DNA of 64,000 nucleotides, from positions 69,214 through 133,213 of the forward strand of contig NZ_CALYPR010000002.1 of the NCBI RefSeq assembly GCF_945277285.1. The letters run 5' to 3'. The translations under genes and the position numbers were made by a program. Shown piece by piece: positions 18,564-40,975 of this stretch. Origin of the DNA: an uncultured Bartonella sp. Its GTDB lineage: Bacteria > Pseudomonadota > Alphaproteobacteria > Rhizobiales > Rhizobiaceae. Numbering within the stretch: position 1 is the stretch's first letter; every line of letters begins with the position of its first letter. The notes beneath the pieces are model-generated. The model was not told where the DNA came from. It was given only the letters and a program-made list of their open reading frames with translations, and did not search any database.

Positions 18564-18587
18564 TGCAATTTCTGGTTGGTATATTGT

Positions 18588-19999: not shown

Positions 20000-20309
20000 A
20001 ACAAGGCAAACGATCTTGCATAAGCAAAATTTTGAGTGCTTTAGCGGCTAAATAGCTGGCAATTTTGTTTCACACAAGCCCCTTTTTTGATTTTTTACGG
20101 GGCTTTTATGGTTTTTCTCGCTGCAATTGATTGACTTTGGCTAAAAACTTCGGCATAAGTTGCCGGAAGGCGTAGTGCGTCTGCGCTTTGACGAGACGTG
20201 GCGAATCCTGTAAGGCTCTCGCTATTCATTTTAAACGACTGATAAAAAGACGGGCGGTTTTTCAAAACTTGCTGAAAGACAAGATCCGGATGGAACGAAA
20301 GGGTTAAAA

Positions 20310-21825: not shown

Positions 21826-21869
21826 TGTCTCAAACGGGCGCGGGGCCATTTTCCCGCGCCTGATTTTTT
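21671..21869 (+). repeat. 199-bp direct repeat, copy 1 (3' end of GNAT gene plus terminator)
   Basis: 198/199 identical to 22283-22481; the single difference is aaaaacTggg vs aaaaacCggg. Confidence 0.9.
21837..21869 (+). terminator. Rho-independent terminator after the GNAT gene
   Basis: GGCGCGGG-gccatttt-CCCGCGCC followed by TGATTTTTT. An identical copy lies at 22449-22481. Confidence 0.75.
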
Positions 21870-22245
21870 GTGTTTCGTATAGTGCATGCTTTTGCCCTGC
21901 AGCGTCACTTGATCCAGCGCGCATTTTTCCACGCGCCTTTCCGCTTTCCTCTGAAACGAGCTTTTGCGCTCCATCCGGCTCTATGTCTTGACAATTTCTG
22001 TTGTTAACGTGCATCCCGCCAGTGTCTTGCGGTTTCTTCGCTCATTACTGATTTGCTCTCTCCCGCATAACCCACATGTGCTGCATATCTAGTCAGATTA
22101 CGCCTTCTCCGTGCGGCACATTCTCTTATCCTTGCCGCATTTGTCTTTACAGTTCGCACGTCCATTCCTTTTTAATTCACCTTAACCCGCTTATATCGGC
22201 CCGCTTCCATCGTCTTTTGAACGGCACGCATGTTTTTATCCTCAT

Positions 22246-22437
22246 GCCACCGATAACGAGGCACTTTATGTTGCCCACTTCTCTGCCAATCAGGCTTCAC
22301 GCCGCGTTGTTGAAAAACCGGGCTTCCAATATATCGGCACAACAGAAACGCGGTCTGTTGTTTCCGGCCTTGTTTTTGCCGACCAGTATATTCTGGAACG
22401 TGAAACATGGCTTGGCCAATTAAGCCGTTGTGCTTGA
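22246..22437 (+). pseudogene. 3' fragment of a second, diverged GNAT gene
   Basis: In frame it reads ATDNEALYVAHFSANQASRRVVEKPGFQYIGTTETRSVVSGLVFADQYILERETWLGQLSRCA*, against ATDIDALYVSNFAANQASRRVVEKLGFQYIG.. in the intact gene. No start codon or N-terminal half is recognisable upstream. Confidence 0.7.
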
Positions 22438-22481
22438 TGTCTCAAACGGGCGCGGGGCCATTTTCCCGCGCCTGATTTTTT
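22283..22481 (+). repeat. 199-bp direct repeat, copy 2
   Basis: See copy 1. Offset is 612 bp, and identity ends exactly after the T-run of the terminator. Confidence 0.9.
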
Positions 22482-23034
22482 AGCCTTCCACCGCCTCCGT
22501 TCCGCGCCTCGCACACGCTGTTTAACGCCTTGTGAGCGTGCCGCACCCCGCATTTTTTCTTGGCACTATTTTATCGGTGCTGCACCAGCCTTCACATAAC
22601 ACGCACCCGTTCCCCCTAAACCAGCATTGCTTCCGCTCGCTCCTTGCATACTTTCCAAGATCTAGCCGGTTATATATCCCGCCATTTTTCTTGGCTCCCG
22701 CCAGCACCGTGCATCCGTTTAATGCGGCGCATCCTTTTTTGAAGCCCCTTTTTATGACGCATCTCGTAACGGTTATGCGCCAGTCTCTTTTCGCCCCGCA
22801 CATCTCTTCGCCGGTGGCTTTTATCTTTTGGCTGCCTTGCTTCCAACCCAAGCCATGCATGTCATTTCTTTTGCCGCATCTATTCACGCAACCCCTCTCT
22901 TGCCATATGGTACTGGCGCATTTAACGGCTTTTTTGCCAGCAGTCCGGCAAAGGCGGTTTTTGCACAATCGCAGGTTTAATTATTGGTTTGTTCAAGGCG
23001 TGTCCGGCAAGCATTAATTGAGATATAATTTTTA

Positions 23035-24438
23035 TCAATCGGTTTTTTTAACGGTGCGCTCGCGTGTTTTGTTCAACGCATGGCCGGCATCAGGCGGCAA
23101 TCCCAAAAACACAAAAAAAGCAAGCGCCGAAATGGCGGCAACAATAAAAAAGCTGATATGAAAATCGCCAAGCTTCAAGATATTGTCGTGAAAGCTGGAT
23201 GAAATTTCCAGTACCGCACCGGCAATGGCTATGCCCAAAGCCATAGATGCTTGCTGGGCAACAGCGGCAATCGGGGTTGCCTGGCTCAATTCTTGCTTTT
23301 TGATATCGGCAAAGGCCAGCGCATTGACACCGGAAAAGAAGAGCGAGCGTAAAAAGCCGCCCACAAGCAGAACCGGCACCATGATCCAATAAGACGTTGT
23401 CGGGAAAAACAAGTCGTTCGACGCGGTAAACATGGCTGAAATAATGGCCCCTGTCATCAAGGTTTTGCGAAAACCGAAATGCGCATAAACTTCTCTCGCG
23501 CCAAACTTCATGCCAAGCGCCCCAAGTGCGGCCGCCAACACCATCATGCCTGACTGGACGGGTGAAAGCCCGAAAGATAGTTGCAGCATCATCGGCAACA
23601 AAAAGGGCACCGCACCGATACCGAGCCGGAAAATGCTGCCGCCGATAATGGAACGGGCAAAAACCGGATCAGCAAATAGACGCAGGTTTAACAATGGTTC
23701 ATCTTTGTTTTTTGCATGGCGAATATAAAAGCCGCCGGTTATAAGCCCGATTATGGTAATGGAAAGGCCGACACTTTGTGGCAAAGCCGGCAGACTGATG
23801 ATGGAAAGACCGAAAATAAAGCCGGAAAGGGCAATTGCCGAAAGCAAAAAACCTGTCCAGTCAAGCGGGCGCAGAACTTTCATTTCGTCTTTTGGCAAAT
23901 AGATGGTGGAAAGAATAAGCCCGATAAAACCGATTGGAATGTTGATTAAAAAAATCCAGTGCCAGCTAAAATAGGTGGTGATAAAACCGCCCAGAGGCGG
24001 GCCGATCAGCGGGCCGATGAGCGCAGGAACAGAAAACCACGCAAGGGCAATGACAAGTTCGTCCTTTGGTGTTGATTTGACCAGTAAAAGGCGGCCGACA
24101 GGCGTCATCATGGCGCCTCCCATGCCTTGTAAAAACCGCGACACCACAAACGAATGCAGCGAAAACGAGAGCGCGCAGCACACCGAACCGACAAGAAAAA
24201 CAACAATGGCCATTCTGAAAATGACGCGTGCGGTAAAGCGGTCGGCCATAAAGCCGCTTATCGGAATAAAAACCGAGAGCGCCACCAGATAGGATGTCAT
24301 CGCAAGTTTCAAAGCAATCGGACTGGTGTTCAAATCGGCGGCAATAGCGGGAAGGGAAGTGGTGATAACGTTGGAATCGACGTGTTCCATAAAAAGGGCA
24401 ACCGCCAGAACCATGGGGAGGATGCGCATCAATGACAA
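23035..24438 (-). CDS. MFS transporter, DHA2 (EmrB/QacA-like, 14-TMS) drug:H+ antiporter family
   Basis: 467 aa, about 14 hydrophobic segments. N-terminal LDxxV(I)xxxLPxI-like motif (MEHVDSNVITTSLPAIAADL) and GFMADRF motif A region. Start is either TTG 24438 or ATG 24429. Confidence 0.85.
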   Translation of the reverse strand: MSLMRILPMVLAVALFMEHVDSNVITTSLPAIAADLNTSPIALKLAMTSYLVALSVFIPISGFMADRFTARVIFRMAIVVFLVGSVCCALSFSLHSFVVSRFLQGMGGAMMTPVGRLLLVKSTPKDELVIALAWFSVPALIGPLIGPPLGGFITTYFSWHWIFLINIPIGFIGLILSTIYLPKDEMKVLRPLDWTGFLLSAIALSGFIFGLSIISLPALPQSVGLSITIIGLITGGFYIRHAKNKDEPLLNLRLFADPVFARSIIGGSIFRLGIGAVPFLLPMMLQLSFGLSPVQSGMMVLAAALGALGMKFGAREVYAHFGFRKTLMTGAIISAMFTASNDLFFPTTSYWIMVPVLLVGGFLRSLFFSGVNALAFADIKKQELSQATPIAAVAQQASMALGIAIAGAVLEISSSFHDNILKLGDFHISFFIVAAISALAFFVFLGLPPDAGHALNKTRERTVKKTD

Positions 24439-27365: not shown

Positions 27366-28226
27366 CCTTTGCCCGAAAAGGCAGTTGGCTCTGATCTATT
27401 GATATAGATTGTGTATGTCAATTTAAGTTCAATAAAGCCCGTTGCAAAACAAAACGTGCGGTGCTCCGGTTTCGCTTGCCAAGGGGTATCAAATCCTGCC
27501 AGATTTTTGAAAAGCGGCATGACTTACCTTTTCAGCACGATGGGCTTGCCCATGCCATGCTGGCTGAAAATAGCTGCCTCCGCCGTTTTGTCCTCAGCGG
27601 TACTCTATCGCCATTGTGGCTATAAAATTGGTTTTTTCCACGCGGTGGTAGAAGAAATTGGCGATTAGATTGATAAAAAATGCCGCGGCAATATCGGCCA
27701 TTACTGCGCAATGGCAGCGTTTTATGAGCGTTGCACACACAGCTATCTTGAATGTATGAAAGATCCGCAAATCGAGCATGTGTTGAAGCGTGATGGCGCG
27801 GCGGTGCTCGCCAATAGAACAAGCTGGCCAAGCCAAGTATCATAAAATGTTGGTTGAAGCCGTAAATGCCATGATAAAAAAACACATCATCCATATTTGC
27901 AATGCGGTGGCTCAGACAGGCCGGAACAATAGCGCGCTTTATTGTGCTTTAAGGTGCCGGTTTCGCCATTGCCCGTTTAAAAAAAGAGGCGGAAAGAACA
28001 TTTAAAAACAGTCGGAAGGTTTTGCCTTCTTATAGATGACCATCCGTACGAGAAACGCTGAAAATGCCATCACAACAGTGCCTGAGGCCACCGCGACAAA
28101 ATTTGCCTGAAAATTGGTTATGCTATAAAATTCCGGTAAAACCGCAAACGTTCAAAACCACAATCGAGCCATAGCATGAACCACGAATTGACACTCAACA
28201 CCTTGACCGCACCATTGCGGTTTTTC

Positions 28227-28351
28227 AACCCATAATTGAAGCAAATTTTAAAAAAATGACAAAAATCAGCCAAATTTTGTGTTTTTTTTCCATTTTTTTT
28301 GAAAAAAATACCCACTTAACGCTTAAAAAACAAAGAGTTAAGTGGGTATCG
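28227..28351. repeat. AT-rich CRISPR-flank segment, copy A (homologous to 30083-30203 and 40674-40744)
   Basis: Alignable by eye. A reads ..CCATAATTGAAGCAAATTTTAAAAAAATGACAAAAATCAGCC..TTTTTTTTGAAAAAAATACC.. and B reads ..CCAATTGAATTTAAAAAAAATGGAAAAAACCGGCC..TTTTTTTAAAAAAAATACC.. Confidence 0.7.
28301..28349 (-). terminator. intrinsic terminator at the left (minus-strand downstream) end of CRISPR array A
   Basis: 13-bp stem ATACCCACTTAAC / GTTAAGTGGGTAT (28308-28320 / 28337-28349) with a 16-nt loop. On the minus strand it is followed by TTTTTT(C). It ends 2 nt from the first repeat. Confidence 0.65.
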
Positions 28352-28652
28352 GTTGTAGCATATTAGAAAATGCGGTCAAGCCGCAACATGTCGCTAATCA
28401 AAACAACACTGTTGTGTGTTGTAGCATATTAGAAAATGCGGTCAAGCCACAACATGAACGCTGGTGTGGTGATAGCGACATGAGTTGTAGCATATTAGAA
28501 AATGCGGTCAAGCCGCAACAATGCACCGGTACTTTGCCATCTAGTTTGCTGTTGTAGCATATTAGAAAATGCGGTCAAGCCGCAACTATCGCGGTCGCCA
28601 AAAGCACCATACCGTTGGTGTAGCATATTAAAAAATGCAATGCATTTGATCA
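28352..28652 (-). CRISPR. CRISPR array A: 4 intact 36-bp repeats plus 1 degenerate repeat, 4 spacers (30/30/31/30 bp)
   Basis: Repeats at 28352, 28418 (GCCACAAC variant), 28484 and 28551 read GTTGTAGCATATTAGAAAATGCGGTCAAGCCGCAAC. The repeat at 28617-28652 keeps only the first 22 nt. All spacers are unique. The strand given is the inferred transcription direction (promoter and terminator logic), not proven. Confidence 0.9.
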
Positions 28653-28681
28653 GCTCATTTTTCCGGCAAAGTCTTTGGTTG

Positions 28682-28788
28682 TCGCAATCCTTATCCGAAA
28701 ACCGTGCATTTTTAGTTATCGCAATTCTTATCCGAAAACCGTACATTTTTTCAACTGGTTCTTATCCAAAAACCGCTTCGCACTTTTT
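28682..28788. repeat. three direct repeats (about 32 bp, 37-bp period) with core CTTATCC(G/A)AAAACCG
   Basis: TCGCAATCCTTATCCGAAAACCGTGCATTTTT (28682-28713), TCGCAATTCTTATCCGAAAACCGTACATTTTT (28719-28750) and a weaker third unit ..GGTTCTTATCCAAAAACCGCTTCGCACTTTTT (about 28756-28788). Confidence 0.7.
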
Positions 28789-28845
28789 GGGAAACAAGTT
28801 GCACTTTTCGGGAGCCGCTTGGAAACCTTTTTCAAAAAAAGCGCG

Positions 28846-29880
28846 TTAATTGCCCCAAATGCGTTCAAGAACGGCAATCCAGTTTTTGGAAGTGATTTTT
28901 TCAATCTCGTCATGGCTAAAACCGGCTTTTTCCATAGCGTCAACAAGCTTCGGCAATTGCGTGCAATCCGATAGGTCATTGGGAATGGTTGTGCCGTCAA
29001 AGTCAGAGCCAAGGCCAACATGTTCCACGCCGACAATGTCAACAATATAGCGCATATGGTTGATAATGGTTTTAAGTGGCGTGTCGCGGTTGCGCTCGCC
29101 ATCTGCACGCAAAAATTTCACCCCGAAATTGATGCCGACAAGCCCCTTGCTTTTGCCAATGGCGCGCAATTGCTCATCGGTCAAATTGCGGCTTTGATGG
29201 CTCAAGTGATAGGCGTTCGAATGGGAAGCAACAAGCGGCGCATCGCTCAATTTGGCAATGTCCCAGAAGCCTTTTTCATTCATATGGGAAAGGTCAACCA
29301 TAATGCCGAGTTTGTTGCATTCGCGCACCAGCTTTTTGCCGGCCTCCGTCAAGCCCGGGCCAATATCGCCGGTTGAAGGATATTTGAACGGCACACCAAA
29401 ACCGAAAATATTGGGCCGGCTCCACACCGGGCCAAGGCTGCGCAAACCATTTTCATAAAACATGGCCAGTTCTTCGAGGTTTTCGCCAATCGCTTCGGCC
29501 CCTTCAATGTGAAAAACAGCGGCAAATTGATGCGCTTTGATGGCCTCTTTAATGTCTTTGGCAGTTTTGCAAATTTTGAAGCGTTGCGGGGCAAGCTTTT
29601 CAATATCATGAAGAAGCTTGGCCATTTCCTTGCTCGGGCCTAGCGCATCCTTTTGTTTAAGCTCGGGATAAACCCCGTTTGCATCTGGCGTTAAATCGAC
29701 CGATGGCGGGTAAACCGCACAAAGCCCACCAACAAGCCCGCCTTTTTCAGCCTTTGGCAGGTCAAGTTCTGCACCGTCAAAACCATTGATAAAGGCGTTC
29801 GGGTCTAGATGTTTTTCATCGCGTATTTTGGAAAGAATATCATTGTGCCCGTCAAAACATTGAATGCGCGTTTGTGTCAT
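28846..29880 (-). CDS. membrane dipeptidase (peptidase family M19)
   Basis: 344 aa. The N-terminal FDGHNDIL metal motif and the overall pattern (..VDLSHMNEKGFWD.., ..ASHSNAY.., ..GLGSDFDG..) are typical of renal-dipeptidase-type enzymes. Confidence 0.85.
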   Translation of the reverse strand: MTQTRIQCFDGHNDILSKIRDEKHLDPNAFINGFDGAELDLPKAEKGGLVGGLCAVYPPSVDLTPDANGVYPELKQKDALGPSKEMAKLLHDIEKLAPQRFKICKTAKDIKEAIKAHQFAAVFHIEGAEAIGENLEELAMFYENGLRSLGPVWSRPNIFGFGVPFKYPSTGDIGPGLTEAGKKLVRECNKLGIMVDLSHMNEKGFWDIAKLSDAPLVASHSNAYHLSHQSRNLTDEQLRAIGKSKGLVGINFGVKFLRADGERNRDTPLKTIINHMRYIVDIVGVEHVGLGSDFDGTTIPNDLSDCTQLPKLVDAMEKAGFSHDEIEKITSKNWIAVLERIWGN

Positions 29881-30082
29881 GAAAATTGCCTTAATCCCAG
29901 TTCATTAAAATGTTTTTCTGTTATAGGCCATTAAACGCCCTTTAAACACCGGCGTTAATAATTTTTTTTAAAAATGGCACGCGGGGAGGCTGTGCTTTTG
30001 TCAGATGCGGAAATCGGCGGGGCAAATTTGGTGAGGAAAAAGTTCTTTGAGAAAACTCAAAAACTACGCTGTTATCGCGTCT

Positions 30083-30203
30083 AAAAACCAATTGAATTTA
30101 AAAAAAATGGAAAAAACCGGCCTGACTTTTTCACTTTTTGACCAATTTTTTTAAAAAAAATACCTGTTTATCTCTTATAAATCAAAGAGATAAACAGGTA
30201 TCA
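30083..30203. repeat. AT-rich CRISPR-flank segment, copy B
   Basis: Homologous to 28227-28351 (see there). Confidence 0.7.
30152..30201 (-). terminator. intrinsic terminator at the left end of CRISPR array B
   Basis: 16-bp stem ATACCTGTTTATCTCT / AGAGATAAACAGGTAT (30160-30175 / 30186-30201) with a 10-nt loop. On the minus strand it is followed by 7-8 T. It ends 2 nt from the first repeat. Confidence 0.7.
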
Positions 30204-30306
30204 GGTGTAGCATATTAGAAAATGCGGTCAAGCCGCAACATGTAAGACTGCCTTTCAGTGTCGATTTAGGGGTGTAGCATACTAGAAAATGCGGTCAAGC
30301 CGCAAC
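30204..30306 (-). CRISPR. CRISPR mini-array B: 2 repeats, 1 spacer (31 bp)
   Basis: GGTGTAGCATATTAGAAAATGCGGTCAAGCCGCAAC (30204-30239) and GGTGTAGCATACTAGAAAATGCGGTCAAGCCGCAAC (30271-30306). Same family as array A, with a G at position 2. Confidence 0.75.
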
Positions 30307-30499
30307 TGAAGATTGTAAAAAAATAACATTTCGGTTTGCCTTTTGGTCGAGGCAGTATTTGTAATTGCAATTTGTTGGCACACATTATAGCCAATGATCT
30401 GTTGAAATTGTATTGCCGTCTTGACGGGCAAATACTGTATCCTGTATTCTACCCGGACAAATGGCGACCTCCGGATATATTACAAGGAAAGCATAGATT

Positions 30500-31792
30500 T
30501 TGAAAAAAGAAAAAACAGAAGCGGATTTTGTTAGAACAAAACGTGAAAATATGGGACTGACGCAGAGTGCTTTCGCTGCGCTTCTCTCTATGGGGGCTTC
30601 AGGTGAGCGGACTATAAGGGGTTGGGAAAGCGGACAGCATACTCCGTCAGAAGAGTACATGAAACGCATGCAAAATCTGGTTGAGAATATACCGTTTAAA
30701 CCGGGAAAGAATTTATCGTCCTTTACATTTATAGATCTTTTTGCAGGTATAGGTGGAATCCGTCTTCCTTTTCAGGAACTGGGCGGAAAATGTGTATTTA
30801 CATCCGAATGGGATAAATTTGCCCAAAAAACCTATGCAGCGAATTTTGCTGAATTACCATATGGTGACATTACTGCCATAGCGGCATCTGGGATCCCATG
30901 CCACGATATACTTCTCGCGGGGTTTCCTTGCCAGTCTTTTTCGATGGCTGGTCTCAGAAAAGGTTTCCTTGATACCCGTGGAACCATGTTTTTCCAAATT
31001 CAGAAAATATTGGCTTATCATAGGCCCAAGGCTTTTCTTCTGGAGAATGTAAAACAGCTGAAAGGGCATGACAAAGGCCGGACGTTGAAAACCATTCTCG
31101 CAATATTGAGAGGGCACCATGACGTTTCTATACCGGATGATGTGCCTCTGTCTGACGAGTTACGGGAAAGTCTGAAAACAAAACTCGATTATTCGGTCGG
31201 TTATCGTGTTTTGAGTGCAACCGATTTCGGGGTGCCACAAAAACGGGAACGTATTTACATTGTCGGTTTTGATCGAAGTATCTGTAACGAGGACGATATA
31301 TCGCAGATGTTCGACCAATTGGAAAAGAACGATAAGAAATCGCTGGGGCAGATACTCGAAGACAATTCATCGGTTCCTGATAAATACACGATTTCCGATA
31401 GGCTTCTGGCAGGGCATGAACGACGGAAAAAGGAACAGAAAGAAAAAGGAAACGGCTTCGGGTACAGTCTTTTCAGTCATAATAGTCTTTATTGCAATAC
31501 CTTGAGTGCGCGCTATTATAAGGATGGATCAGAAATTCTCATCGACCAGAGTGACATCGGAAAGAATCCCAGAAAACTGACGCCTCGTGAATGTGCCCGC
31601 ATACAGGGGTTTCCCGAAAAATTCCGGCTGGATGCTGTTTCCGATGTTCAACTCTATAAACAGTTCGGCAATTCTGTTTCGGTTCCGGTTATACGCTCTA
31701 TAGCGAAAGAAATGGTCAAAATTCTGCTGGAAAGCGGAAAAGACGCCGGAAACCTTGATTTGAGGAAGGTTTACGGGGAAAAATTTGGCTGA
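30500..31792 (+). CDS. DNA (cytosine-5)-methyltransferase with N-terminal XRE-type HTH
   Basis: 430 aa. HTH ..RENMGLTQSAFAALLSMG..TIRGWESG... m5C MTase motifs I FIDLFAGIGGIRLPF, IV GFPCQSFS, VI LLENVKQL, VIII QKRERIYIVG, IX RKLTPRECARIQGFP and X GNSVSVPV. TTG start with AAGGAAAG 8 nt upstream. Confidence 0.9.
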   Translation: MKKEKTEADFVRTKRENMGLTQSAFAALLSMGASGERTIRGWESGQHTPSEEYMKRMQNLVENIPFKPGKNLSSFTFIDLFAGIGGIRLPFQELGGKCVFTSEWDKFAQKTYAANFAELPYGDITAIAASGIPCHDILLAGFPCQSFSMAGLRKGFLDTRGTMFFQIQKILAYHRPKAFLLENVKQLKGHDKGRTLKTILAILRGHHDVSIPDDVPLSDELRESLKTKLDYSVGYRVLSATDFGVPQKRERIYIVGFDRSICNEDDISQMFDQLEKNDKKSLGQILEDNSSVPDKYTISDRLLAGHERRKKEQKEKGNGFGYSLFSHNSLYCNTLSARYYKDGSEILIDQSDIGKNPRKLTPRECARIQGFPEKFRLDAVSDVQLYKQFGNSVSVPVIRSIAKEMVKILLESGKDAGNLDLRKVYGEKFG

Positions 31793-32240
31793 TATCGTAT
31801 CGCCTGAAAAACGCAGCCGCATGATGGCCGGTATACAAGGGAAAAATACCGGACCGGAAATGATAGTTCGCAGAACCCTGTTTTCGGCAGGTTACCGGTA
31901 TCGGTTGTACAGAAAAGATTTGCCCGGTACGCCGGATATAGTGCTTCCCAGGTATCGTTGTGTGATATTTGTGAATGGTTGCTTCTGGCATGGCCACGAA
32001 AATTGCAGGTTGTTCCGCCTGCCCAAAAGCAATACGGAATTCTGGCGCGCAAAGATTGAAGGCAATATTGCGAGAGACCGGAAAAAGTATGATGCGCTTG
32101 CTGAAAGAGGCTGGCGTATTATTATTGTCTGGGAATGTGCGGTAAAAGGGGCTCAACGGTTGTCGCACGCGGATTTCCAATATCAGCTATTTCATGCTAT
32201 TTCCGAAAAGAAAAAATGCCTTGTAATTAAAGGTGATTGA
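31785..32240 (+). CDS. vsr: very-short-patch repair endonuclease
   Basis: 151 aa with KRSRMMAGIQGKNTGPE, GTPDIVLPRYRCVIFVNGCFWHGH and FWRAKIEGNIARD, the canonical Vsr pattern. TTG start overlaps the MTase stop by 8 nt, as in dcm-vsr pairs. Confidence 0.9.
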   Translation: MADIVSPEKRSRMMAGIQGKNTGPEMIVRRTLFSAGYRYRLYRKDLPGTPDIVLPRYRCVIFVNGCFWHGHENCRLFRLPKSNTEFWRAKIEGNIARDRKKYDALAERGWRIIIVWECAVKGAQRLSHADFQYQLFHAISEKKKCLVIKGD

Positions 32241-32269
32241 CTTGAATATAGAGCGAAAAACTTGGACTC

Positions 32270-33847
32270 GTGATCATGGTACCCGATATTATAAATAGTT
32301 TCAAAGTTACCCAAGAAAAAATAAGTAAAATCGATAAAAAGCAGGTCGTAGTATTGAGCCCGCAACAATGGCAAAAAATTATTGCTGAATATCAGAAAAA
32401 ATTTCCTCAGGAGACTGTTTTTGAGGTGGGTGGGCATACGCTGGTGAACATAAATAGAAAAGGCCAGACAAAATATGTAAGTTGTCAGGAATTTCCGAAA
32501 TTATTTTTTCTTGTTGATCTATTTAAAGATCTTTTGTCTTTTGAAAGTGTTTTAAATAAACTTTCCGAGGCGATGGGGCTTAAAAATCCTCAGTCTGATG
32601 ATGAAAATAATGTATTCAAAGTTCTACCTTCAGAGACCGCAGAGAAAGAACTTGGGGATCGGTATAATTCGCTGATTGACGCCATTGACAAGTCGTTTCC
32701 TGATGCAGATGATCAGCTTAACATAAAAAATTTTTTGTTCAGCTCTAATGACGGTAAAAAGTTGAATCGCGGGGACTGGATGGAATCTGTTCTGTATAAA
32801 GCGGGAGGGCTGGTAGCGGCTTCATCAGCAGGTCGGGCCGGAATTCTGGAAGTGTTGGAAAAGACGGGAATAGATCCCAATTCACTCCATTTTGTATCAA
32901 ACCAGCAAGAACAGAACACGTTGATCATTGAAAATAATTCTACGCGAAAAACAGGTGGTATAAACCGCATCTATTATGGAGCTCCGGGAACCGGAAAATC
33001 CTACACAGTTGAGAAAAGCTCCCGTCCGGAAACAAGAACTACTACAGTATTCCACTCCGACTTCCAGAACAGCGATTTTGTCGGTGCTTTGAAACCGGTG
33101 ATGTCGGATGGCTCCGTTACCTACAAATTTTCCCCGGGCCCGTTTGCCATAGCGTTAAAAGAAGCATGGCTTGATCCTGAAAATATGCATTACCTCGTGA
33201 TCGAAGAACTGAATCGTGCGCCGGCCGCATCGGTGTTCGGAGAACTGTTCCAGCTGCTGGACCGGGACAACAACGGAAACAGCCAGTACGAGATAGACTT
33301 TCCGTCGGAAGAATTTGCTTCATGGTGGAGGGATGAGACAGGTGAGGAAGGTAAAATGAGGCTTCCCTCGAATCTTTCTATACTCGCGACGATGAACAGC
33401 GCTGACCAGGGAGTATATCCCCTTGATACGGCTTTTCGCCGTCGATGGGAACACGAATATATTCCTCTGGACTATAAAAAAGCTCCGGAAGGACAAATTG
33501 GTTTACGTCTGAAGGATGATGAAACTCCCCGCACGGTAGAATGGAGTGTTTTTCTGAAGAGACTCAATCAGTATTTTGTAGAAAAAATCAATGACTTACC
33601 GGAAGACCGGTTGATCGGACCCTATTTTTTATCAGGATATGATCTGGATAATGCTAAAAATTCGATTCCCGAAAAGCTGCTGATCTATATATGGGATGAT
33701 CTTTTACGCCATACCGGAAGACAGGAAATATTCGTCAGTTCTATCAAAACGTATGGTGATCTGGTCCGGAGAAACGAGAATGGAAAAGTGATTTTTTCAG
33801 AAGCTTTCCTTGCACGGTTTGATGATGGGAATGGCGTTGTTTCATGA
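32270..33847 (+). CDS. McrB-family AAA+ GTPase (LlaJI R1-like restriction subunit) with an unassigned 230-aa N-terminal domain
   Basis: Walker A GAPGTGKS, Walker B-like LVIEELNRA, McrB signature ATMNSADQ and arginine-finger region DTAFRRRW. The N-terminal domain has no motif I recognise. Start is GTG 32270 or ATG 32276. Confidence 0.8.
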   Translation: MIMVPDIINSFKVTQEKISKIDKKQVVVLSPQQWQKIIAEYQKKFPQETVFEVGGHTLVNINRKGQTKYVSCQEFPKLFFLVDLFKDLLSFESVLNKLSEAMGLKNPQSDDENNVFKVLPSETAEKELGDRYNSLIDAIDKSFPDADDQLNIKNFLFSSNDGKKLNRGDWMESVLYKAGGLVAASSAGRAGILEVLEKTGIDPNSLHFVSNQQEQNTLIIENNSTRKTGGINRIYYGAPGTGKSYTVEKSSRPETRTTTVFHSDFQNSDFVGALKPVMSDGSVTYKFSPGPFAIALKEAWLDPENMHYLVIEELNRAPAASVFGELFQLLDRDNNGNSQYEIDFPSEEFASWWRDETGEEGKMRLPSNLSILATMNSADQGVYPLDTAFRRRWEHEYIPLDYKKAPEGQIGLRLKDDETPRTVEWSVFLKRLNQYFVEKINDLPEDRLIGPYFLSGYDLDNAKNSIPEKLLIYIWDDLLRHTGRQEIFVSSIKTYGDLVRRNENGKVIFSEAFLARFDDGNGVVS

Positions 33848-35106
33848 CGACGTTATTTCTGAATGATGGATATCCGCTCTCGAAGCTGGAGGATGAACAT
33901 CCGGGGATATATCGAATACTCGAAAGCAATTATCCCGGATCTACTCTCAATCGTGACAGGTTGAGGTTTTGTGGAATTGTTTGTGAAGCCGGTTCGGATC
34001 CCGTTGTATTTCTTCCCTATGGCATTGTCATTTCCCGATTCGCTGCACCGGATTATAACGCCGGCCGGCTTCTTATGCGGTCGGTTGCCCGTTACGGAAA
34101 AGACAATCCGTCGCGGGCAGGCCATTCTCTTTCCGATGTGGATTATAAAGGGACGATGTTCATCGCTGTTGTAAATGAACTCGCCAATGATTTTATACGC
34201 AACGGTCTTTATTCCCGACGATTGAGAAAAAGGCAGGTGCAGACGGGTAAGCCCGACTGGCCACGGACTATAAAAAGGCAGACGCCTTTCTTTTCTGACA
34301 AAGGGGTGCCCATATATCCCGTCATTGAAACCAATGGATTTCAGGAAGCGAATATAAATATTCTTGCCAGCATCCAGGCCGATACAATAGTTGATATAGC
34401 ATCCAGACATGGCTGGTGGACTGGATTGGGCGCGTCGCAAACCAGGTTTCTTAAAAACATTCCGAAGCTGGTCAGAGACAGGAAACTTTACCCGGCAGCT
34501 ATCCGCGATTTTATGAACTTTCTTTATGATGACAATTCGCTAAGACTGGCAAGGCTATTGCGAACGTACTGGAGCAACTACTCAGCAACCGGATCCGGAA
34601 GTTTTGTGTGTGGTATCTCGGATTTCTCGACCCTCTGGGAGCAGATGCTCAAAAATCTGGTGGATGACCGTTCGGGCGAGTGGAACAGCAAACTTCCTTC
34701 GCCGGTCTATAAAATACATAATCTGGATGACAAAGCTCCCAAGGATAGGGGAAGAATGGATATAGTGATAGAGGCAACCGATAACATCATTGTCGCCGAC
34801 GCAAAATATTACAGGGCATTATCGGCTGATAGCGCTCCGGGCATTTCCGATCTCCTGAAACAATCCTATTATGCAAAGTCGGTATCTGATCTTGCTCCTC
34901 AAAAACCGATCCGCAGCTGTTTTGTTTTTCCATCGGAGAAAGGTAGTGGTCCGATAGAATACGGCTCGTTCGCCAGTACTTTGCATGACCAAAAGGTAGC
35001 ATGGCTGGAAGATACACATTGTTTATACGTCAATACGCGGGAAGTCATGCAAAGCTACGTTTCGCGATCGAAATTGGACTGGTTTCTACAATTATACAAA
35101 AAATAG
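33844..35106 (+). CDS. McrC-like / LlaJI R2-like PD-(D/E)xK nuclease subunit
   Basis: 420 aa. ATGA overlap with the McrB-like gene. C-terminal nuclease-like motif GRMDIVIE..(10 aa)..VADAKYY (D..D/ExK). The pairing with a McrB-type GTPase is the McrBC/LlaJI architecture. Confidence 0.65.
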   Translation: MTTLFLNDGYPLSKLEDEHPGIYRILESNYPGSTLNRDRLRFCGIVCEAGSDPVVFLPYGIVISRFAAPDYNAGRLLMRSVARYGKDNPSRAGHSLSDVDYKGTMFIAVVNELANDFIRNGLYSRRLRKRQVQTGKPDWPRTIKRQTPFFSDKGVPIYPVIETNGFQEANINILASIQADTIVDIASRHGWWTGLGASQTRFLKNIPKLVRDRKLYPAAIRDFMNFLYDDNSLRLARLLRTYWSNYSATGSGSFVCGISDFSTLWEQMLKNLVDDRSGEWNSKLPSPVYKIHNLDDKAPKDRGRMDIVIEATDNIIVADAKYYRALSADSAPGISDLLKQSYYAKSVSDLAPQKPIRSCFVFPSEKGSGPIEYGSFASTLHDQKVAWLEDTHCLYVNTREVMQSYVSRSKLDWFLQLYKK

Positions 35107-35363
35107 AAACGAATAATTATGGCATCGGGCATGTTTACTTGTTTTGACTTTAACATCCGGATACGTATTCCTGAATGATCAAGAGCTCGGTTTGTAGGAA
35201 GAAGCCTTCCGGTTTTAAAGCAACCCGGGAGCGTTGGCAGATCCTCGATCGTTATAGAGAAAGGTTATTATATCTTTGATACAGAAAGGGATTTCGGAAT
35301 CTGATCGTAAAAGTCCATTCAACGATCGAAAACAAGGTCTAAATTGCAGCAAAGCATTAGAAA

Positions 35364-35401
35364 GCAACGGGCAAAAAGTTTGCCTGTTGCGATAGTTTTT
35401 T
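35364..35401. terminator. bidirectional hairpin terminator between the restriction module and the oxidoreductase operon
   Basis: GCAACGGGCAAA-aag-TTTGCCTGTTGC (one mismatch), followed by GATAGTTTTTT on the + strand and TTTCT on the - strand. Confidence 0.55.
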
Positions 35402-35410
35402 AAAGCTAAG

Positions 35411-36148
35411 TCAGCGATAGGCTGCTGGGCGGTCGCCATCGGTATTGGGCTGTGAAATGCCGAGGTTTTCATTTTTGTGGCTATCGGGATTTTTAACAAT
35501 ATCGGCAATAAACCGGCCAAGGCTGGCGCGTGATGTTTCGGTGCCTTTATAGGTTTCGCCTTTTTGTGTGAGCTCCACTGTTTCTATCGGTTTGTTGGTG
35601 AGCCAGACCGGCCGCAAAATGGTATAGGTCAGGTCCGATTGTTCGATTTCCTCGGCACTGCGGCGGTTGATTGGCCTTGTTTGCCCGACAATCTCTCTGT
35701 CCCAAGTGTTGAAAGGTTCGGGCAATTCATCGTATATGCCGCCGGCGCTGATCGAGATTAAGCGTTTGACACCATTATCTTGCATGGCTTTGATAATATT
35801 GGCGGTTTTTTTATCAAGATCCATCCCGCCCATGGTGTTGATGACAATGTCTTGCCCCTTCATGGCCCGTTCAACATCGGCAAGATTTGTTGCGTCACCC
35901 TCAACAACATCTACGCGTTCACTTTTCATATGTTCAAGCCGTGAAGCATGGCGCAAAAACAAGGCAAGATGAACATCGTTCTGTTGAAGTAAGCGCGGGA
36001 TAATTTCTTGCGCCGTGCGCCCGTTAGCGCCCATAATGATAACGTTTTTCATTGTTTTGGTCTCCGTCTGTGCGTTTGAAGGTTGTAGAAGTGCCAAGGC
36101 CGTGGCAAGCCCCGCGAGCCATATAAAAAGTGGTTTTAGAATTTTCAT
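35411..36148 (-). CDS. NAD(P)H-binding (NmrA/atypical SDR-like) protein with possible Sec signal peptide
   Basis: Rossmann motif VIIMGANGRTAQ. 32 residues precede it: MKILKPLFIWLAGLATALALLQPSNA|QTE (signal-peptide-like). An alternative cytoplasmic start is MKNVIIMG (ATG 36052). Confidence 0.75.
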   Translation of the reverse strand: MKILKPLFIWLAGLATALALLQPSNAQTETKTMKNVIIMGANGRTAQEIIPRLLQQNDVHLALFLRHASRLEHMKSERVDVVEGDATNLADVERAMKGQDIVINTMGGMDLDKKTANIIKAMQDNGVKRLISISAGGIYDELPEPFNTWDREIVGQTRPINRRSAEEIEQSDLTYTILRPVWLTNKPIETVELTQKGETYKGTETSRASLGRFIADIVKNPDSHKNENLGISQPNTDGDRPAAYR

Positions 36149-36239
36149 AAGATAAAATCTTCCTGTTTTTTAGGAGCTATTTTCATAGCCGGGTTGCAAC
36201 TTCTCATGGTTTCACAACCCGCTTTGTTGCTCTGGTCTT

Positions 36240-37502
36240 TCAAAGTGTTTCATATTGCTTGCCAATTTTTTTGCCGGAAATTGCCCACACACCGGCAAGC
36301 ACAAGCGCCAGCCCCATAATCATTGGCGGGTGGGCAACATTGCGGGTAAGTGTATCAACCCAGCCCCAAAACGCATCCGAACCGCGATAGACAAAGGTGT
36401 CGAGCGCATTTTTGGCACTAAAACGCGTGTCTTCATCAACGGCAGCAAAAAGCATTTCGCGGGCCGGTCGTGCCAGCGCATATTCGCCAACACGGCGAGC
36501 CACCATGGCAATTGCCAATATCGGAAAGCTGTAAAACAGTCCGAGAAGCCCGAACACCACCACCATCATAACCGGCAGGCTGACCAGCAGAAATGTAACG
36601 CCGAGCTTGCGGGCAATGCGGCCGGTAAAAAATATCTGTATGAGAATGGAAGCCGTCTGGACAATCATATCCATAATGGAAAAAAACTGTGTCTGTTCGG
36701 CAGGACTTGCAAAGCGCGCGTGCACAAGGCGGGCTTGCGCATAATAGAGAAATGTTGTCGAGGCTGATGTGAGAACGACATAAAGGGCAATCTGGCGCAA
36801 ATAAGGGGAATGAAGAACCAGCTTCAGCCCAATCCATATGCCGGAAAATTTTGGTTTTTCTTCGCCATTTTTTTCTTTTTGCCGGCCATGGTGTTGGCTC
36901 CAGCGCACCAGAAAAAACCAGCAGAAAAGCGTTGACAAAAATAGCAAAGTCGAAATCAGTAACAACCCGCCATAGCCAACTTTTCCAACCAGAAATCCAC
37001 TTAAAAGCGGGCCGGTAATGCCGCCAAGGCTTGCCCCAGCCGATAATGGCCCGAACAGGCGTTGCGCCTGATCCTTGTTAAAAACTTCAGCTAAAAAGCT
37101 CCAGCAAAGTGAAATGACAAACAGGTTATAAACCGACACCCAGACAAAAAATGCCCGCCCCACCCATATTGGGTTTCTGTTTATGAAAAGGCTAGAGGTA
37201 AAACACAGCATGACCACGGCACAAAAAATATAGCAATAGGCAAAGAGCTTTGTTTTTTTCAATTTCTGGCTCACATAGCCAAACAGCGGTACCACAAGCA
37301 GTGTGGCAACAAAGGTAGCGGTAAAAAGCCATGAAAGATGGTTGACACCGCCGGCTATGCCGAAGGTCTCACGCACCGGCCGCAACATAAAATAGCTGCA
37401 AAAAACCAGAAAAAGCATGATAAAACCACCGATAAAAGCCGCTGTTTCATCGGCTTTCAGGTTTAATGCTTTGTCAAAGCTTTTTAAAATTTTACCAGTC
37501 AT
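36240..37502 (-). CDS. MFS-type transporter (12 TM), subfamily uncertain
   Basis: 420 aa polytopic protein. The N-terminal FLVFCSYFMLRPVRETFGI resembles the F..Y..LR..K/R-D/E signature of TLC/ADP-ATP-carrier-like MFS proteins; this is a weak by-eye resemblance only. Confidence 0.7.
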   Translation of the reverse strand: MTGKILKSFDKALNLKADETAAFIGGFIMLFLVFCSYFMLRPVRETFGIAGGVNHLSWLFTATFVATLLVVPLFGYVSQKLKKTKLFAYCYIFCAVVMLCFTSSLFINRNPIWVGRAFFVWVSVYNLFVISLCWSFLAEVFNKDQAQRLFGPLSAGASLGGITGPLLSGFLVGKVGYGGLLLISTLLFLSTLFCWFFLVRWSQHHGRQKEKNGEEKPKFSGIWIGLKLVLHSPYLRQIALYVVLTSASTTFLYYAQARLVHARFASPAEQTQFFSIMDMIVQTASILIQIFFTGRIARKLGVTFLLVSLPVMMVVVFGLLGLFYSFPILAIAMVARRVGEYALARPAREMLFAAVDEDTRFSAKNALDTFVYRGSDAFWGWVDTLTRNVAHPPMIMGLALVLAGVWAISGKKIGKQYETL

Positions 37503-37512
37503 TTGAGGCCAG

Positions 37513-38301
37513 CTATTGAAGCTTCAAGAGTTTACGCAATTTGTCAGCCGGAAGATGGGCGCGAAAGCCCGCTGCATCGGGTGAAAAAGACGCCGATGAA
37601 GCAAGATTTCCGGTAACGACAGGCTCGCACCCCGTTTCGCTGACAAGTTTTTCCACCACCTGCAAGGCGGCCTCGTCATCACTGGCCATCGGCATGCCGA
37701 CAGCTTCACGTTGGTGGTTGAAACAAGCTTCCACCACAGTGGCATCAACGGCAGAAAATGCCCGCACAAGGCGCGTATCCGGCAAATATTTTTTAACCGT
37801 TTCGGCAACGCCATTTTTGCGTGCTTCACCAGTTAGCGGGTCAGAACCACCGGATAGAGGCGGGTTTGTCGCATCAATAACAATTTTGCCTTTCAGTTCT
37901 TGCGCACAATCCTTGCCAATTTGCGGCAAAGCCTGAAATGGCACAGAGACAAGCACAACATCGCCAAAAGCGGCGGCTTCTTTCGGGGTGCCAATCAAAG
38001 CATTTTTTCCAAGCGGGGCGACAAGTTTTTTTAACGCTTCCGGATGGCGGGACGAAAACATTACATTGTGTCCGGCTTTGGCAAGACAACTGCCCACCGT
38101 GCCACCAAGCCAGCCGGCGCCAATCACACCGATTTTTAAAGCTTTTGCATCGGTTGTGCTTTTTTCATCGGCAGAACTTTTTGTAGCTCCCGCGGTTTCA
38201 TTATGCTGCGGCGTTTGGGAAAAGGCCGGATAGGCACCGAAAGCTGTGTCGGCGGAAAATAGAATTGCAGATTTTAACAAGCTACGACGGGAAATTGTCA
38301 T
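37513..38301 (-). CDS. NADP oxidoreductase (F420-reductase/ProC-N-like Rossmann protein) with twin-arginine signal
   Basis: MTISRRSLLKSAILFSADTAFGAYPAFS (S-R-R-x-L-L-K Tat motif), a Ser/Thr/Lys-rich linker, then IGVIGAGWLGGTVG Rossmann fold. Confidence 0.75.
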   Translation of the reverse strand: MTISRRSLLKSAILFSADTAFGAYPAFSQTPQHNETAGATKSSADEKSTTDAKALKIGVIGAGWLGGTVGSCLAKAGHNVMFSSRHPEALKKLVAPLGKNALIGTPKEAAAFGDVVLVSVPFQALPQIGKDCAQELKGKIVIDATNPPLSGGSDPLTGEARKNGVAETVKKYLPDTRLVRAFSAVDATVVEACFNHQREAVGMPMASDDEAALQVVEKLVSETGCEPVVTGNLASSASFSPDAAGFRAHLPADKLRKLLKLQ

Positions 38302-38316
38302 AAAAACCTCGCTGTT

Positions 38317-39336
38317 TTAAATGGGAAAAGCTTTGTCAAGCTTTTCAAGATCATCCTCGTCAAGGTGAAGGCCAAGGGCTGCCGCATTTTCACGCATATG
38401 GTTAGCCTGCCCTGTTTGCGGGATGGAAATGGTAAAATTGTTGCGCATTGTCCAGAAAATCGCCACAGCCGCCGCACTGACGGCATGTTTTTTGGCAATC
38501 TCTTGCAAAGTTGCGTTTTGTAAAAGGCCGCCTTTTCCAGAACCAAGCGGCGAATAGGCCATGATCGGCATAGCGTTTTTAATTGACCATGGCATAAGGT
38601 CGCGTTCAATCTGGCGGTCAAGAAGTGAATATTCCACCTGATTGGTGGCACATTTTTCGCCATTTGGAATGGCAAACAGATCTTCCATATCGGCAACAGA
38701 AAAATTCGACACGCCCCAATCGGTAAACGCCCCTTCGGCTTTGAGTTCCTCGAACGTGTCAACAACGGTTTTGAGGTTGGAAATACCACCACGCCAATGC
38801 AGAAGATAAAGATCCATTTTTGCAATGCCAAGCCGTGCCAGACTGTTTTGACAGGCGGTGCGGATGTCATTGGCATTGCCCGCATGCGCCGGCATGATTT
38901 TTGAAACAATATAGGTTTTGTTGCGGCGGCCGGCGATAATGCGGCCCACCATTTCTTCAGCAAGGCCGGAGCCATAAAGCTCGGCTGTATCAATCAGCTT
39001 CATGCCCAGATCAAGACCGGTTTGAAGTGCTTCTTCTTCCTGTTCTATTGGCCGCACACCTTGCGCGAGTTTCCATGTGCCCATGCCCAGTGCGGGAATG
39101 AGATTTCCGGTTTTCAACTTTATTAAGGGGTTTTGTGCCGGCTTGTTAGGCGCTATTTTATCTGGCGCTGTTTTATCTGCTGTTGTCTTGTTTGGCACTG
39201 CGTTGTTTGTTGCTGCTTTGTCTGGTGCGGCACTATTTTGTGGTGTGGTGGTTTGGCTTGCCAACGCATTTTGGCAAACAAGCAAACCGGCACCACAGCC
39301 AACAGCAAATTGGCGACGTGTGATATTCATTCCCAT
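38317..39336 (-). CDS. aldo/keto reductase with twin-arginine signal and P-[DN]-K repeat linker
   Basis: Start at ATG 39336 (GAGGAAAG upstream). MGMNITRRQFAVGCGAGLLVCQNALA Tat-type signal, then linker APDKAATNNAVPNKTTADKTAPDKIAPNKP. AKR core motifs LIDTAELYG, DLYLLHW and SPLG. Confidence 0.85.
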   Translation of the reverse strand: MGMNITRRQFAVGCGAGLLVCQNALASQTTTPQNSAAPDKAATNNAVPNKTTADKTAPDKIAPNKPAQNPLIKLKTGNLIPALGMGTWKLAQGVRPIEQEEEALQTGLDLGMKLIDTAELYGSGLAEEMVGRIIAGRRNKTYIVSKIMPAHAGNANDIRTACQNSLARLGIAKMDLYLLHWRGGISNLKTVVDTFEELKAEGAFTDWGVSNFSVADMEDLFAIPNGEKCATNQVEYSLLDRQIERDLMPWSIKNAMPIMAYSPLGSGKGGLLQNATLQEIAKKHAVSAAAVAIFWTMRNNFTISIPQTGQANHMRENAAALGLHLDEDDLEKLDKAFPI

Positions 39337-39617
39337 GTCTTTCCTCGATCTGTTAATAAAAATATAGTTTAATGATAACAGATGGGGTAGGGCAGTTCCA
39401 TTCATCATTGAAATGAATAAAAATCACCAATAGCGGAAACAAAGCCAAGAAAACCGGTGTTCAGAAAAAATATCAGTTGTGGCAAACTGGCTGATCACTG
39501 CTGCAATGATAAGTCGCTATTAAAAACAGCACATGACGGCTAATAAAATACAATTTTGTATGAAAAAGCGGCAGAAGACAGCGCATTCCGGCCGCTTTTT
39601 TCGCTGAATTGATGTGG

Positions 39618-40499
39618 TTACTTGCATATTGCTTTAACTTCGGCCCAAAAGGCAATATTCTCGCCGACAGATTGTAGCCCCGGAAACAGAAACTGTTTGT
39701 TCACGCCGTAATTAAAAAGTTTTCTTAAGATTTCTGTTTTTATTTTAGCAGGAATGATGATTTTTTTAAGCGTTAAGTCGCGATTGAGTGTGGAAGTGAT
39801 ATCGCCCCGTTGATCAATCGATTTATATTTTCCCTCTTCGGTTGCTTCCCATTTTTGAAGTGTAAAAACCGATTTTTGCATAAAAATTCGTTGGTCGACA
39901 ATTGGTGGCAATATGCCGCCAATTTTAACGCTATCTAAATCCTTAAAAATTTGATTCCTTTTAGTATCATTAATATCAAAATAGAGTTTTGACCGTAGCG
40001 TTCGCATCTGATTTATACAAAAGACAGCGGCATCTGTTGCGGTCTGTTTGTCGGTTTTTGTTGAACCCTTCCGGTTTTTCCGGTCTTCCACCCAGGCATT
40101 TTGTACCGCAAAAAACAGCGCCACTAGTGGGTCGCGGCTCCAGTCGAGAAGCCGTGTCGGCACACCATAATGCTGGGCAATAATCCTGTCAGCAATAAAA
40201 CCGCGTTTGGCATTTTGGAGATAAGGCATGCCTTCTGCAAAAAAGCGTTCCACCATTTCTTCTTCACAACGCGTATATCGGCTGTCATTATCTTCCTCAG
40301 GTTCTTTTTTGATAAACGGAGGATTGCGATAAAGCTTCGGGGTGAGCAACCATTTTGCACTGGATTGTCCCCTGAAAAAATGAGCTTTCCCTTCGGTTAT
40401 AGTTTCAATAAGATTGAAATAGGCGTTTAATGTTGGTTTTTTTAAAGTAACTCTTTTTATTTTCATTTTAAAAAATCCGGTCAATATATTCAGATTCAT
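39618..40499 (-). CDS. FRG-domain protein
   Basis: 293 aa (or 282 aa from MKIKRV..). Contains the FRG signature ..KAHFFRGQSSAKWLLTPKLYR.. and ..IAQHYGVPTRLLDWSRDPLVALFFA... The C-terminal 130 aa are unassigned. Confidence 0.75.
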   Translation of the reverse strand: MNLNILTGFFKMKIKRVTLKKPTLNAYFNLIETITEGKAHFFRGQSSAKWLLTPKLYRNPPFIKKEPEEDNDSRYTRCEEEMVERFFAEGMPYLQNAKRGFIADRIIAQHYGVPTRLLDWSRDPLVALFFAVQNAWVEDRKNRKGSTKTDKQTATDAAVFCINQMRTLRSKLYFDINDTKRNQIFKDLDSVKIGGILPPIVDQRIFMQKSVFTLQKWEATEEGKYKSIDQRGDITSTLNRDLTLKKIIIPAKIKTEILRKLFNYGVNKQFLFPGLQSVGENIAFWAEVKAICK

Positions 40500-40673
40500 A
40501 AAATGACATGTTTTTCTTGTCTATCGAAAAGGAAATAGGCTTAAACTCTTTGATCGGCAGCATGAACGAAAAGTTTATAAGCAAAAAAGAGCTGCTATTT
40601 GCGGGCGGGGAGAAAAAAGCAGGCGGAAGGGTGCAAAACCCTGCCCAAACCGGCAAGCGACATTGTTCAAAAT

Positions 40674-40744
40674 ATAGCCGGATCTTATTTTGACTATTTA
40701 AAAAAAAGCTCACTTAACGCTTTTTAAAAAACTGGGCTAGCGGG
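40674..40744. repeat. AT-rich CRISPR-flank segment, copy C (decayed)
   Basis: ..TTTAAAAAAAAGCTCACTTAACGCTTTTTAAAAAACTGGGCT.. aligns with the A flank ..GAAAAAAATACCCACTTAACGCTTAAAAAACAAAGAGTTAAGTGGGTAT.., but the 3' arm of the hairpin is deleted. Confidence 0.55.
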
Positions 40745-40975
40745 CAGCAGGGCCATAAGGAAATGCGGACAAGCCACAACCTTGGATGTTCTTCTTCGTC
40801 GGGCGAAGATGGTGGCGCATAAAAATTGCGGTCAAGCCGCAACTAAATGTTTGGGTAAAGCAATGTCGCCAGTGGTGTAGCAGATTAGAAAATGCGGTCA
40901 AGCCGCAACATGGCGTTCGTTATGGAGCAAAGCTTCATAGTTGCAGCATATTAGAAAATGCGCTCACACCGCAAC
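40745..40975 (-). CRISPR. CRISPR array C: 4 repeats (3 mutated), 3 spacers of 30 bp
   Basis: C1 40745-40780 (3' half ..GGAAATGCGGACAAGCCACAAC conserved). C2 40811-40843 (GGTGGCGCATAAAAATTGCGGTCAAGCCGCAAC, 3-bp shorter). C3 40874-40909 (GGTGTAGCAGATTAGAAAATGCGGTCAAGCCGCAAC). C4 40940-40975 (GTTGCAGCATATTAGAAAATGCGCTCACACCGCAAC). Spacing is exactly 30 bp. Confidence 0.8.

Follow-up and report, generated by a model that had tools for sequence, protein, structure and literature searches.

Three CRISPR arrays without neighbouring cas genes in an uncultured Bartonella are probable satellites of a type II-C CRISPR-Cas9 system encoded on another contig

A stretch of 64,000 nucleotides (nt) from an uncultured Bartonella sp. 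(contig NZ_CALYPR010000002.1; the whole stretch is hereafter called the window, and its first letter is position 1) contains three small CRISPR arrays, here named A, B, and C. They share a 36-nt consensus repeat, which on the plus strand of the window reads GTTGTAGCATATTAGAAAATGCGGTCAAGCCGCAAC. Seven copies with at most three mismatches were found, starting at positions 28352, 28418, 28484, 28551, 30204, 30271, and 40874, and a control over 100 shuffles gave an expectation of 0 such copies. The three arrays described in the original prediction are therefore real. Looser matching added a degenerate copy at the terminus of array A (28617-28652), a copy at 40940-40975, and two decayed copies in array C (40745-40780 and 40808-40843). 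The arrays are as follows:

28352-28652, minus strand: array A, with four repeats intact and a terminal one degenerate; spacers of 30, 30, 31, and 30 nt
30204-30306, minus strand: array B, two repeats, both of a variant specific to this array (GGTG...); one spacer of 31 nt
40745-40975, minus strand: array C, four repeats, of which three are mutated; spacers of 27, 30, and 30 nt

The first spacer of array C is 27 nt long because its first unit measures 63 nt and not 66, which corrects the 30/30/30 nt reported previously. All eight spacers are unique within the window, as had been claimed, and none of them has a self-target there. Regular 36-nt repeats with unique spacers of approximately 30 nt correspond to the geometry of type II-C arrays. 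The terminal repeat of array A (28617-28652) retains its first 22 nt, the half that bears the promoter-like motif described below.

When Cas9, Cas1, and Cas2 of relatives were compared with the whole 64 kb by tblastn, the best value for these queries was E = 0.05, and the sole lower value in that run (E = 0.012) belonged to a non-Cas neighbour open reading frame (ORF). Pfam annotation of the ORFs between 23 and 45 kb revealed transporters, a dipeptidase, oxidoreductases, an FRG-domain protein, and a LysR regulator, and no Cas protein. Both searches agree with the earlier statement that no Cas protein is encoded in the 64 kb. The body of a trans-activating CRISPR RNA (tracrRNA) was not found in the window, and Rfam at gathering score yielded two transfer RNAs (tRNAs) only, the arrays giving sub-threshold chance matches. 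In A. mellifera-type Bartonella the cas operon is positioned at the tRNA site upstream of rplU. This site is empty in the window, and no cas or array relics were detected at the syntenic cas site (18500-20300) or at the syntenic satellite slot (21825-23067).

The distribution of the repeat was determined by scanning the 20-mer AAATGCGGTCAAGCCGCAAC through one genome per species. Matches fell mainly in two groups, the bee-gut Bartonella (B. apis PEB0122, B. apihabitans, B. choladocola, and several metagenome-assembled genomes, MAGs) and Candidatus Tokpelaia sp.; the few isolated matches in unrelated genomes seem coincidental. The consensus repeat is GTTGTAACAGATTAGAAAATGCGGTCAAGCCGCAAC in bee-gut Bartonella and AGTATAGCTAATCAGAAAATGCGGTCAAGCCGCAAC in Tokpelaia. 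Repeats of this family, with two to six mismatches relative to the window, lie directly after cas9-cas1(-cas2) in B. apis, in other bee-gut Bartonella, and in Ca. Tokpelaia. The first array of B. apis and of the MAG CAMLFE is located directly 3' of cas9-cas1-cas2, and in Tokpelaia a 1120-amino-acid (aa) Cas9 and Cas1 immediately precede an array of 62 repeats (loci L018 plus L010). The operon adjoining the repeat family consists of cas9-cas1-cas2 without csn2 or cas4 in loci L018, L014, and L019, and in the conspecific loci L033, L031, and L037 cas9-cas1-cas2 occurs together with a repeat identical to that of the window. The type II-C assignment made in the original prediction is thus upheld by relatives in which the repeat family directly follows cas9-cas1-cas2.

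A conspecific assembly, ERZ12593050, carries arrays A, B, and C on NODE_6 (240 kb, coverage ~2030x); the identity of this contig with the window is 97.5% over 9.1 kb and 96% over the dipeptidase stretch. Its NODE_1 (914 kb, ~2220x), which has the same coverage, carries a tracrRNA, cas9 (1092 aa), cas1, cas2, a flank module of the kind described below, and a 14-repeat array in which the repeat is the exact window consensus. Because NODE_1 and not NODE_6 carries it, the cas locus is simply elsewhere in the window's species. Similar indications were obtained for the MAG from which the window itself derives. The window proteins WP_297327177, -180, -181, and -206 ('uncultured Bartonella sp.') are encoded on a contig of 389,632 nt, and Cas2, Cas1, and Cas9 with the accessions WP_297326581, -582, and -583, also labelled 'uncultured Bartonella sp.', are encoded on a contig of 1,286,574 nt. 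The Cas accessions lie approximately 600 numbers below those of the window proteins; for comparison, Cas9 and the dipeptidase of the conspecific assembly are approximately 1,200 numbers apart. Moreover, the exact Cas2 and an exact window protein co-occur in four samples (SRR13837208, ERZ9515168, ERZ9515169, and ERZ12593051). It is thus very probable that the window's own genome has its own cas9 locus.

In four loci (L019, L018, L032, and L033) a tracrRNA gene was identified upstream of cas9 and divergent from it. In each case the order of elements is an anti-repeat, the motif (T/G)GG(C/T)(T/C)GTTAAC, the segment AAGC..GCACCAAATAAG, a GC-rich hairpin in which base changes are compensatory, and a T-run; the conserved core is AAGC..CACCAAAUAAG, followed by a strong terminator. 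The anti-repeat covaries with the repeat of its own genome in all four loci, and its sequences are:

A. mellifera-type Bartonella: ACAGATTAGAAAATGCGGTC
The window's species: GCATATTAGAAAATGCGGTC
Tokpelaia: GCTAATCAGAAAATGCGGTC

The half of the repeat that is conserved across genera is exactly the half that pairs with the tracrRNA. When the window repeat in minus orientation was folded against the tracrRNA of L033 with RNAcofold, 30 nt were paired, with one mismatch and one bulge. The anti-repeat, hairpins, and terminator suggested as a check on the arrays were accordingly found beside cas9 in relatives, and none was found in the window. No Rfam model detects this tracrRNA; only sub-threshold chance matches were returned. 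From the tracrRNA architecture it follows that the CRISPR RNAs (crRNAs) correspond to the minus strand of the window, GTTGCGGCTTGACCGC...TGCTACAAC, on which the repeat reads GTTGCGGCTTGACCGCATTTTCTAATATGCTACAAC. The strand given in the original prediction was therefore wrong, the crRNA repeat being the reverse complement and starting with GUUGCGGCUUGACC. It also follows that the GTTGTAGC start, previously taken as a Neisseria-type feature, is complementary to the repeat's 3' end, which bears the promoter-like motif. A mini-tracrRNA made up of the flank hairpin and the first repeat (minus strand) was considered and rejected, as relatives have a genuine tracrRNA next to cas9, complete with bulged anti-repeat and conserved core; in addition, the hairpin comes after a perfect repeat without a nexus. 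In L033 the region of ~6.5 kb upstream of cas9 (3466-10001) contains one small called gene (105 aa), and the tracrRNA is located at ~9800-9900.

Positions 9-14 of the minus-strand repeat read TTGACC, and a gap of 16 nt separates them from TGc-TACAAC at the 3' end; the Tokpelaia repeat has TATACT where the window repeat has the -10-like TACAAC. Promoters embedded in the repeats, giving crRNAs independently of processing, have been described for the type II-C arrays of N. meningitidis and C. jejuni (PMC5965381), and the position of the promoter-like motif in the window repeat agrees with that of the repeat promoters in these two species. By analogy, we infer that each repeat may act as its own promoter, with TTGACC as the predicted -35 element and TACAAC as the predicted -10 element.

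Each array has a flank on the hairpin side, located to its left on the plus strand of the window:

28225-28351, minus strand: flank module of array A, an A/T-rich stretch with a 17-18-bp hairpin (28307-28350) and a T-run (28291-28306)
30095-30203, minus strand: flank module of array B, with a hairpin (30159-30202) of other sequence and the same 18-bp stem, followed by a T-run
40697-40744, minus strand: decayed flank remnant of array C (family D6), in which the hairpin retains its 5' arm and has lost its 3' arm

Read along the minus strand, arrays A and B thus present the first repeat, 3-4 nt, an 18-bp hairpin, and a run of seven to eight T. The predicted folding energies are -22.7 kcal/mol (z = -5.6) for the hairpin of array A and -25.1 kcal/mol (z = -6.6) for that of array B, and a terminator scan gave a match to the latter (30202-30159, minus strand). 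The flank of array A is homologous to that of array B and to the flank of the cas-adjacent array in L033. Over ~110-150 nt (~150 nt including the first repeat), the A and B flanks are 77% identical (family D5); only ~35 nt remain of the array C flank, also at 77%. The mutual homology previously claimed for the left flanks thus holds for A and B, and for array C it is limited to those ~35 nt. A separate flank copy for each array, as had been proposed, was seen beside A, B, and C and beside the arrays of relatives.

An RNAalifold alignment of eight hairpin copies from five genomes gave 18 pairs, of which 11 show compensatory double changes; every copy has the T-run. Given this covariation and the constant T-run, the "left flank" is the terminator at the downstream end of the array; that is, the flank hairpin is an intrinsic terminator of minus-strand array transcripts. 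In cas-adjacent arrays such a terminator would prevent array transcripts from running antisense into cas2. The flank module is probably also the integration-side leader. Spacers common to strains are hairpin-distal: spacer A4 of array A is also present in L027 and L028, and one distal spacer is common to B. choladocola and a MAG. The degenerate repeat sits at the end of the array far from the hairpin and keeps the promoter half. Bee-gut Bartonella genomes contain four to seven arrays over 12-20 kb, nearly each with a flank module before the array, and the satellite flanks of B. apis retain ~75 nt of cas2 3'-end sequence. The satellites therefore arose by duplication of the junction of cas2 end, leader, and first repeat. 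In the joined B. apis loci L014+L005, the left flanks of the satellites at 7150-7778, 8277-8877, and 9179-9652 are 83-92% identical to the other flank copies over ~150 nt, the ~75 nt from cas2 included.

Spacer content was compared with conspecific strains in which the flanking DNA is 96-98% identical to the window. Array A has four spacers in the window and at least three in L035, all of them different. Array B has one spacer in the window, two in L026, and five in L035, again all different. The GGTG variant recurs in array B of both L026 and L035, where the array ends in the same degenerate repeat; the presence of this variant in every copy is what growth in place through repeat duplication predicts. 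Array C of L035 shows the same pattern of repeat decay with a few single-base repeat differences, and two of its spacers are identical to those of the window and the third differs by 1 nt. The comparison with related strains, proposed along with the original prediction, therefore gave different answers: spacers differ between strains in A and B, and in C they are the same apart from that single nucleotide. Arrays A and B have the properties of adapting arrays (strain-variable spacers, with the shared ones leader-distal), and array C lacks them. As their spacer content differs between conspecific strains, arrays A and B look live. Judged by its sequence, array C is an inactive fossil: three of its four repeats are mutated and the 3' arm of its flank hairpin is lost, so the decay noted earlier is borne out.

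Taken together, we interpret the three arrays as satellite arrays of a type II-C CRISPR-Cas9 system of the bee-gut Bartonella type, whose cas operon, tracrRNA, and primary array are located on another contig, and assign this reading a probability of roughly 80%. Under this interpretation each minus-strand repeat would act as a promoter, as in N. meningitidis and C. jejuni, with transcripts beginning in the spacer that comes next and each crRNA having its 3' end in the 5' part (the GUUGCGGCUUGACCGCAUUUUCUA part) of the repeat after it. This 5' part would pair over ~30 nt with the anti-repeat of a tracrRNA supplied in trans, and the crRNA would then be loaded into Cas9. Read-through would be halted at the hairpin and U-run directly after the last repeat, and new spacers would probably be inserted on the hairpin-proximal side by Cas1-Cas2 acting in trans.

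Several observations weigh against this interpretation. The link to the cas9 contig consists of accession numbering, sample co-occurrence, and a conspecific assembly, and not of a single contiguous sequence. The putative -10 element TACAAC is without the usual final T, and a consensus promoter scan did not list it because the scan demands that T; the array B variant, TACACC, is still weaker as a predicted -10 element. The origin of the spacers, a matter raised by the original prediction, was not revealed by any of the collections searched: the eight window spacers had no protospacer among INPHARED phages and PLSDB plasmids, five window-spacer 22-mers had no match in IMG/VR, two had none in JGI metagenomes, and ~74 spacers of relatives had no match among phages.

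The lack of a cas gene or tracrRNA over 64 kb also accords with true orphan arrays, left in a strain that had lost cas9-cas1-cas2-tracrRNA and either transcribed or persisting as silent relics without an effector. The empty A. mellifera-type cas site at the tRNA upstream of rplU points the same way, as do the shortness of the window arrays (four, one, and three spacers) relative to those of conspecifics and the clearly dead array C. However, an empty tRNA site is normal for the window's species, since the conspecific cas locus is on another contig and is not at the tRNA either. A complete Cas2-Cas1-Cas9 set lies ~600 RefSeq numbers below the window proteins, on a 1.29-Mb contig with the same taxon label, the exact Cas2 shares its four samples with an exact window protein, and arrays A and B have kept their repeats nearly intact. 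We therefore regard a loss of the system from this strain as unlikely. Of the two alternatives offered by the original prediction, service in trans is favoured by the conspecific cas9-cas1-cas2-tracrRNA locus on another contig, and orphan status would apply at most to array C.

A further possibility is that the arrays are mini-arrays of a phage, prophage, or other mobile element, directed against competitors or hijacking the host Cas9, which would fit their small size, their own flanks, and a region that resembles a defence island and includes a mobile restriction-modification island. We consider this highly improbable, as the arrays are flanked by chromosomal genes for housekeeping and transport whose synteny extends across species and strains, neither phage nor integrase genes surround the arrays, and in relatives the same flank module adjoins cas2. 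The repeat itself had no match in IMG/VR, which also argues against a phage-borne mini-array. Repeats of type VI-B (Cas13b) systems are likewise 36 nt long with the form GTTG...CAAC and 30-nt spacers. The window repeat starts with GTTG and ends with CAAC on both strands and has the same 36/30 geometry, and a CRISPR type with a like repeat shape, such as VI-B, was therefore considered. This reading was dropped when the repeat family proved to lie beside cas9-cas1-cas2 and a tracrRNA that matches it; these are present in every cas-linked genome of the family and no Cas13 was seen, so that we give another CRISPR type next to no weight.

The satellite interpretation places the window among systems of a known kind. 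With the type II-C systems of N. meningitidis and C. jejuni it shares an operon of cas9-cas1-cas2 only, 36-nt repeats, 30-nt spacers, a tracrRNA beside cas9, an array read towards the cas operon, and the promoter-like sequence TGnTACAA(C/T) at the end of each repeat. Unlike those two, the Bartonella system has a -35-like TTGACC in the repeat, an 18-bp terminator hairpin for each array, and many arrays per genome, with the window arrays and cas9 on different contigs. A type II-C locus has already been published for Candidatus Tokpelaia hoelldobleri (PMC5156944). In Tokpelaia Cas9 is ~60% identical, the tracr-pairing half of the repeat is identical, and the tracrRNA and terminator hairpin are homologous, but there is one long cas-adjacent array (62 repeats) with a few solitary repeats instead of several growing satellites. 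Such solitary repeats were observed far from the main Tokpelaia array (L011 6602, L022 578, and L023 431), some with a decayed second copy after them. In a Bartonella MAG (L009, 1320) one perfect window-type repeat and a flank module follow cas1-cas2; this single repeat may be an assembly collapse.

There is also a likeness to B. apis PEB0122, B. apihabitans, and B. choladocola, which have the same system with a Cas9 of 75-95% identity. Their satellites cluster within ~12-20 kb of cas9, around rplU-rpmA-GNAT and beside MFS-MatE, and the satellite flanks keep a fossil of the cas2 3' end. In the window's species, by contrast, these slots are vacant; the satellites instead flank the dipeptidase gene and lie far from cas9. 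Arrays remote from any cas operon are common in many bacteria. The window arrays resemble these in having no cas genes within tens of kb, and array C behaves like a classic decaying orphan; they differ in that the repeats of A and B are intact and identical to those of the conspecific cas-linked array, with spacers that turn over between strains.

The main value of these results is a correction: arrays that seem cas-less in a 64-kb window are ordinary type II-C satellites. The strand, the tracrRNA, the promoter-like repeat motif, and the per-array terminator have been worked out for bee-gut Bartonella Cas9, details of modest value that help in the spacer-based assignment of phages to hosts in bee gut viromes and in any use of this compact Cas9 of 1092 aa. 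Neat as they are, neither the several arrays per genome of bee-gut Bartonella nor the terminator of each array amounts to a new mechanism. More tentatively, Bartonella and Tokpelaia might possess a dispersed multi-array system, although we think this doubtful. In such a system a module of cas2 fossil, A/T-rich leader, terminator hairpin, and first repeat would duplicate and seed arrays that grow independently with their own repeat variants, tens to hundreds of kb from cas9, and serve as landing or recombination sites for defence islands such as the restriction-modification island. If true, this would be a natural case for studying the choice of Cas1-Cas2 among leaders in trans and the birth and death of arrays. 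The live-looking arrays A and B beside the dead array C, with a restriction-modification island abutting an array, offer a small example from nature of how arrays arise, grow, and decay.

The restriction-modification island, which is specific to this strain, lies between arrays B and C and was annotated with Pfam:

30308-35365 (5.06 kb), plus strand: HTH-Dcm methylase, Vsr, McrB-like AAA ATPase, and LlaJI-type endonuclease

It starts immediately behind array B's second repeat and takes the place of the distal part of that array and ~110 nt beyond. The island is absent from the conspecific L026 and L035, where array B continues and joins the equivalent of window position ~35366. Just upstream of the fossil array C is the gene for the FRG-domain protein (39618-40499), which is conserved in the conspecific L035.

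At 21780-21869 and 22393-22482 the window contains a direct duplication of ~90 nt, identical by eye, that consists of the 3' end of a GNAT gene and a terminator. It encloses ~520 nt of non-coding-looking DNA, and the slot is occupied by several satellite arrays in A. mellifera-type Bartonella; the duplication may have been left behind when an array was deleted or replaced. The stretch from the degenerate repeat of array A to the stop codon of the dipeptidase gene (28674-28830) contains tandem units of ~37 nt, with CTTATCCGAAAACCG three times and also GCACTTTTCGGGA-like motifs. It gave a sub-threshold Rfam match to the Brucella small RNA CI408 (32 bits versus a gathering score of 398), and its copy number is different in the conspecific L025. 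In some conspecific strains (L025 1834-2361 and L035 11560-12087) a 175-aa ORF without a Pfam match lies between the dipeptidase gene and array A, together with ~700 nt of other DNA, and array A ends there in an intact repeat.

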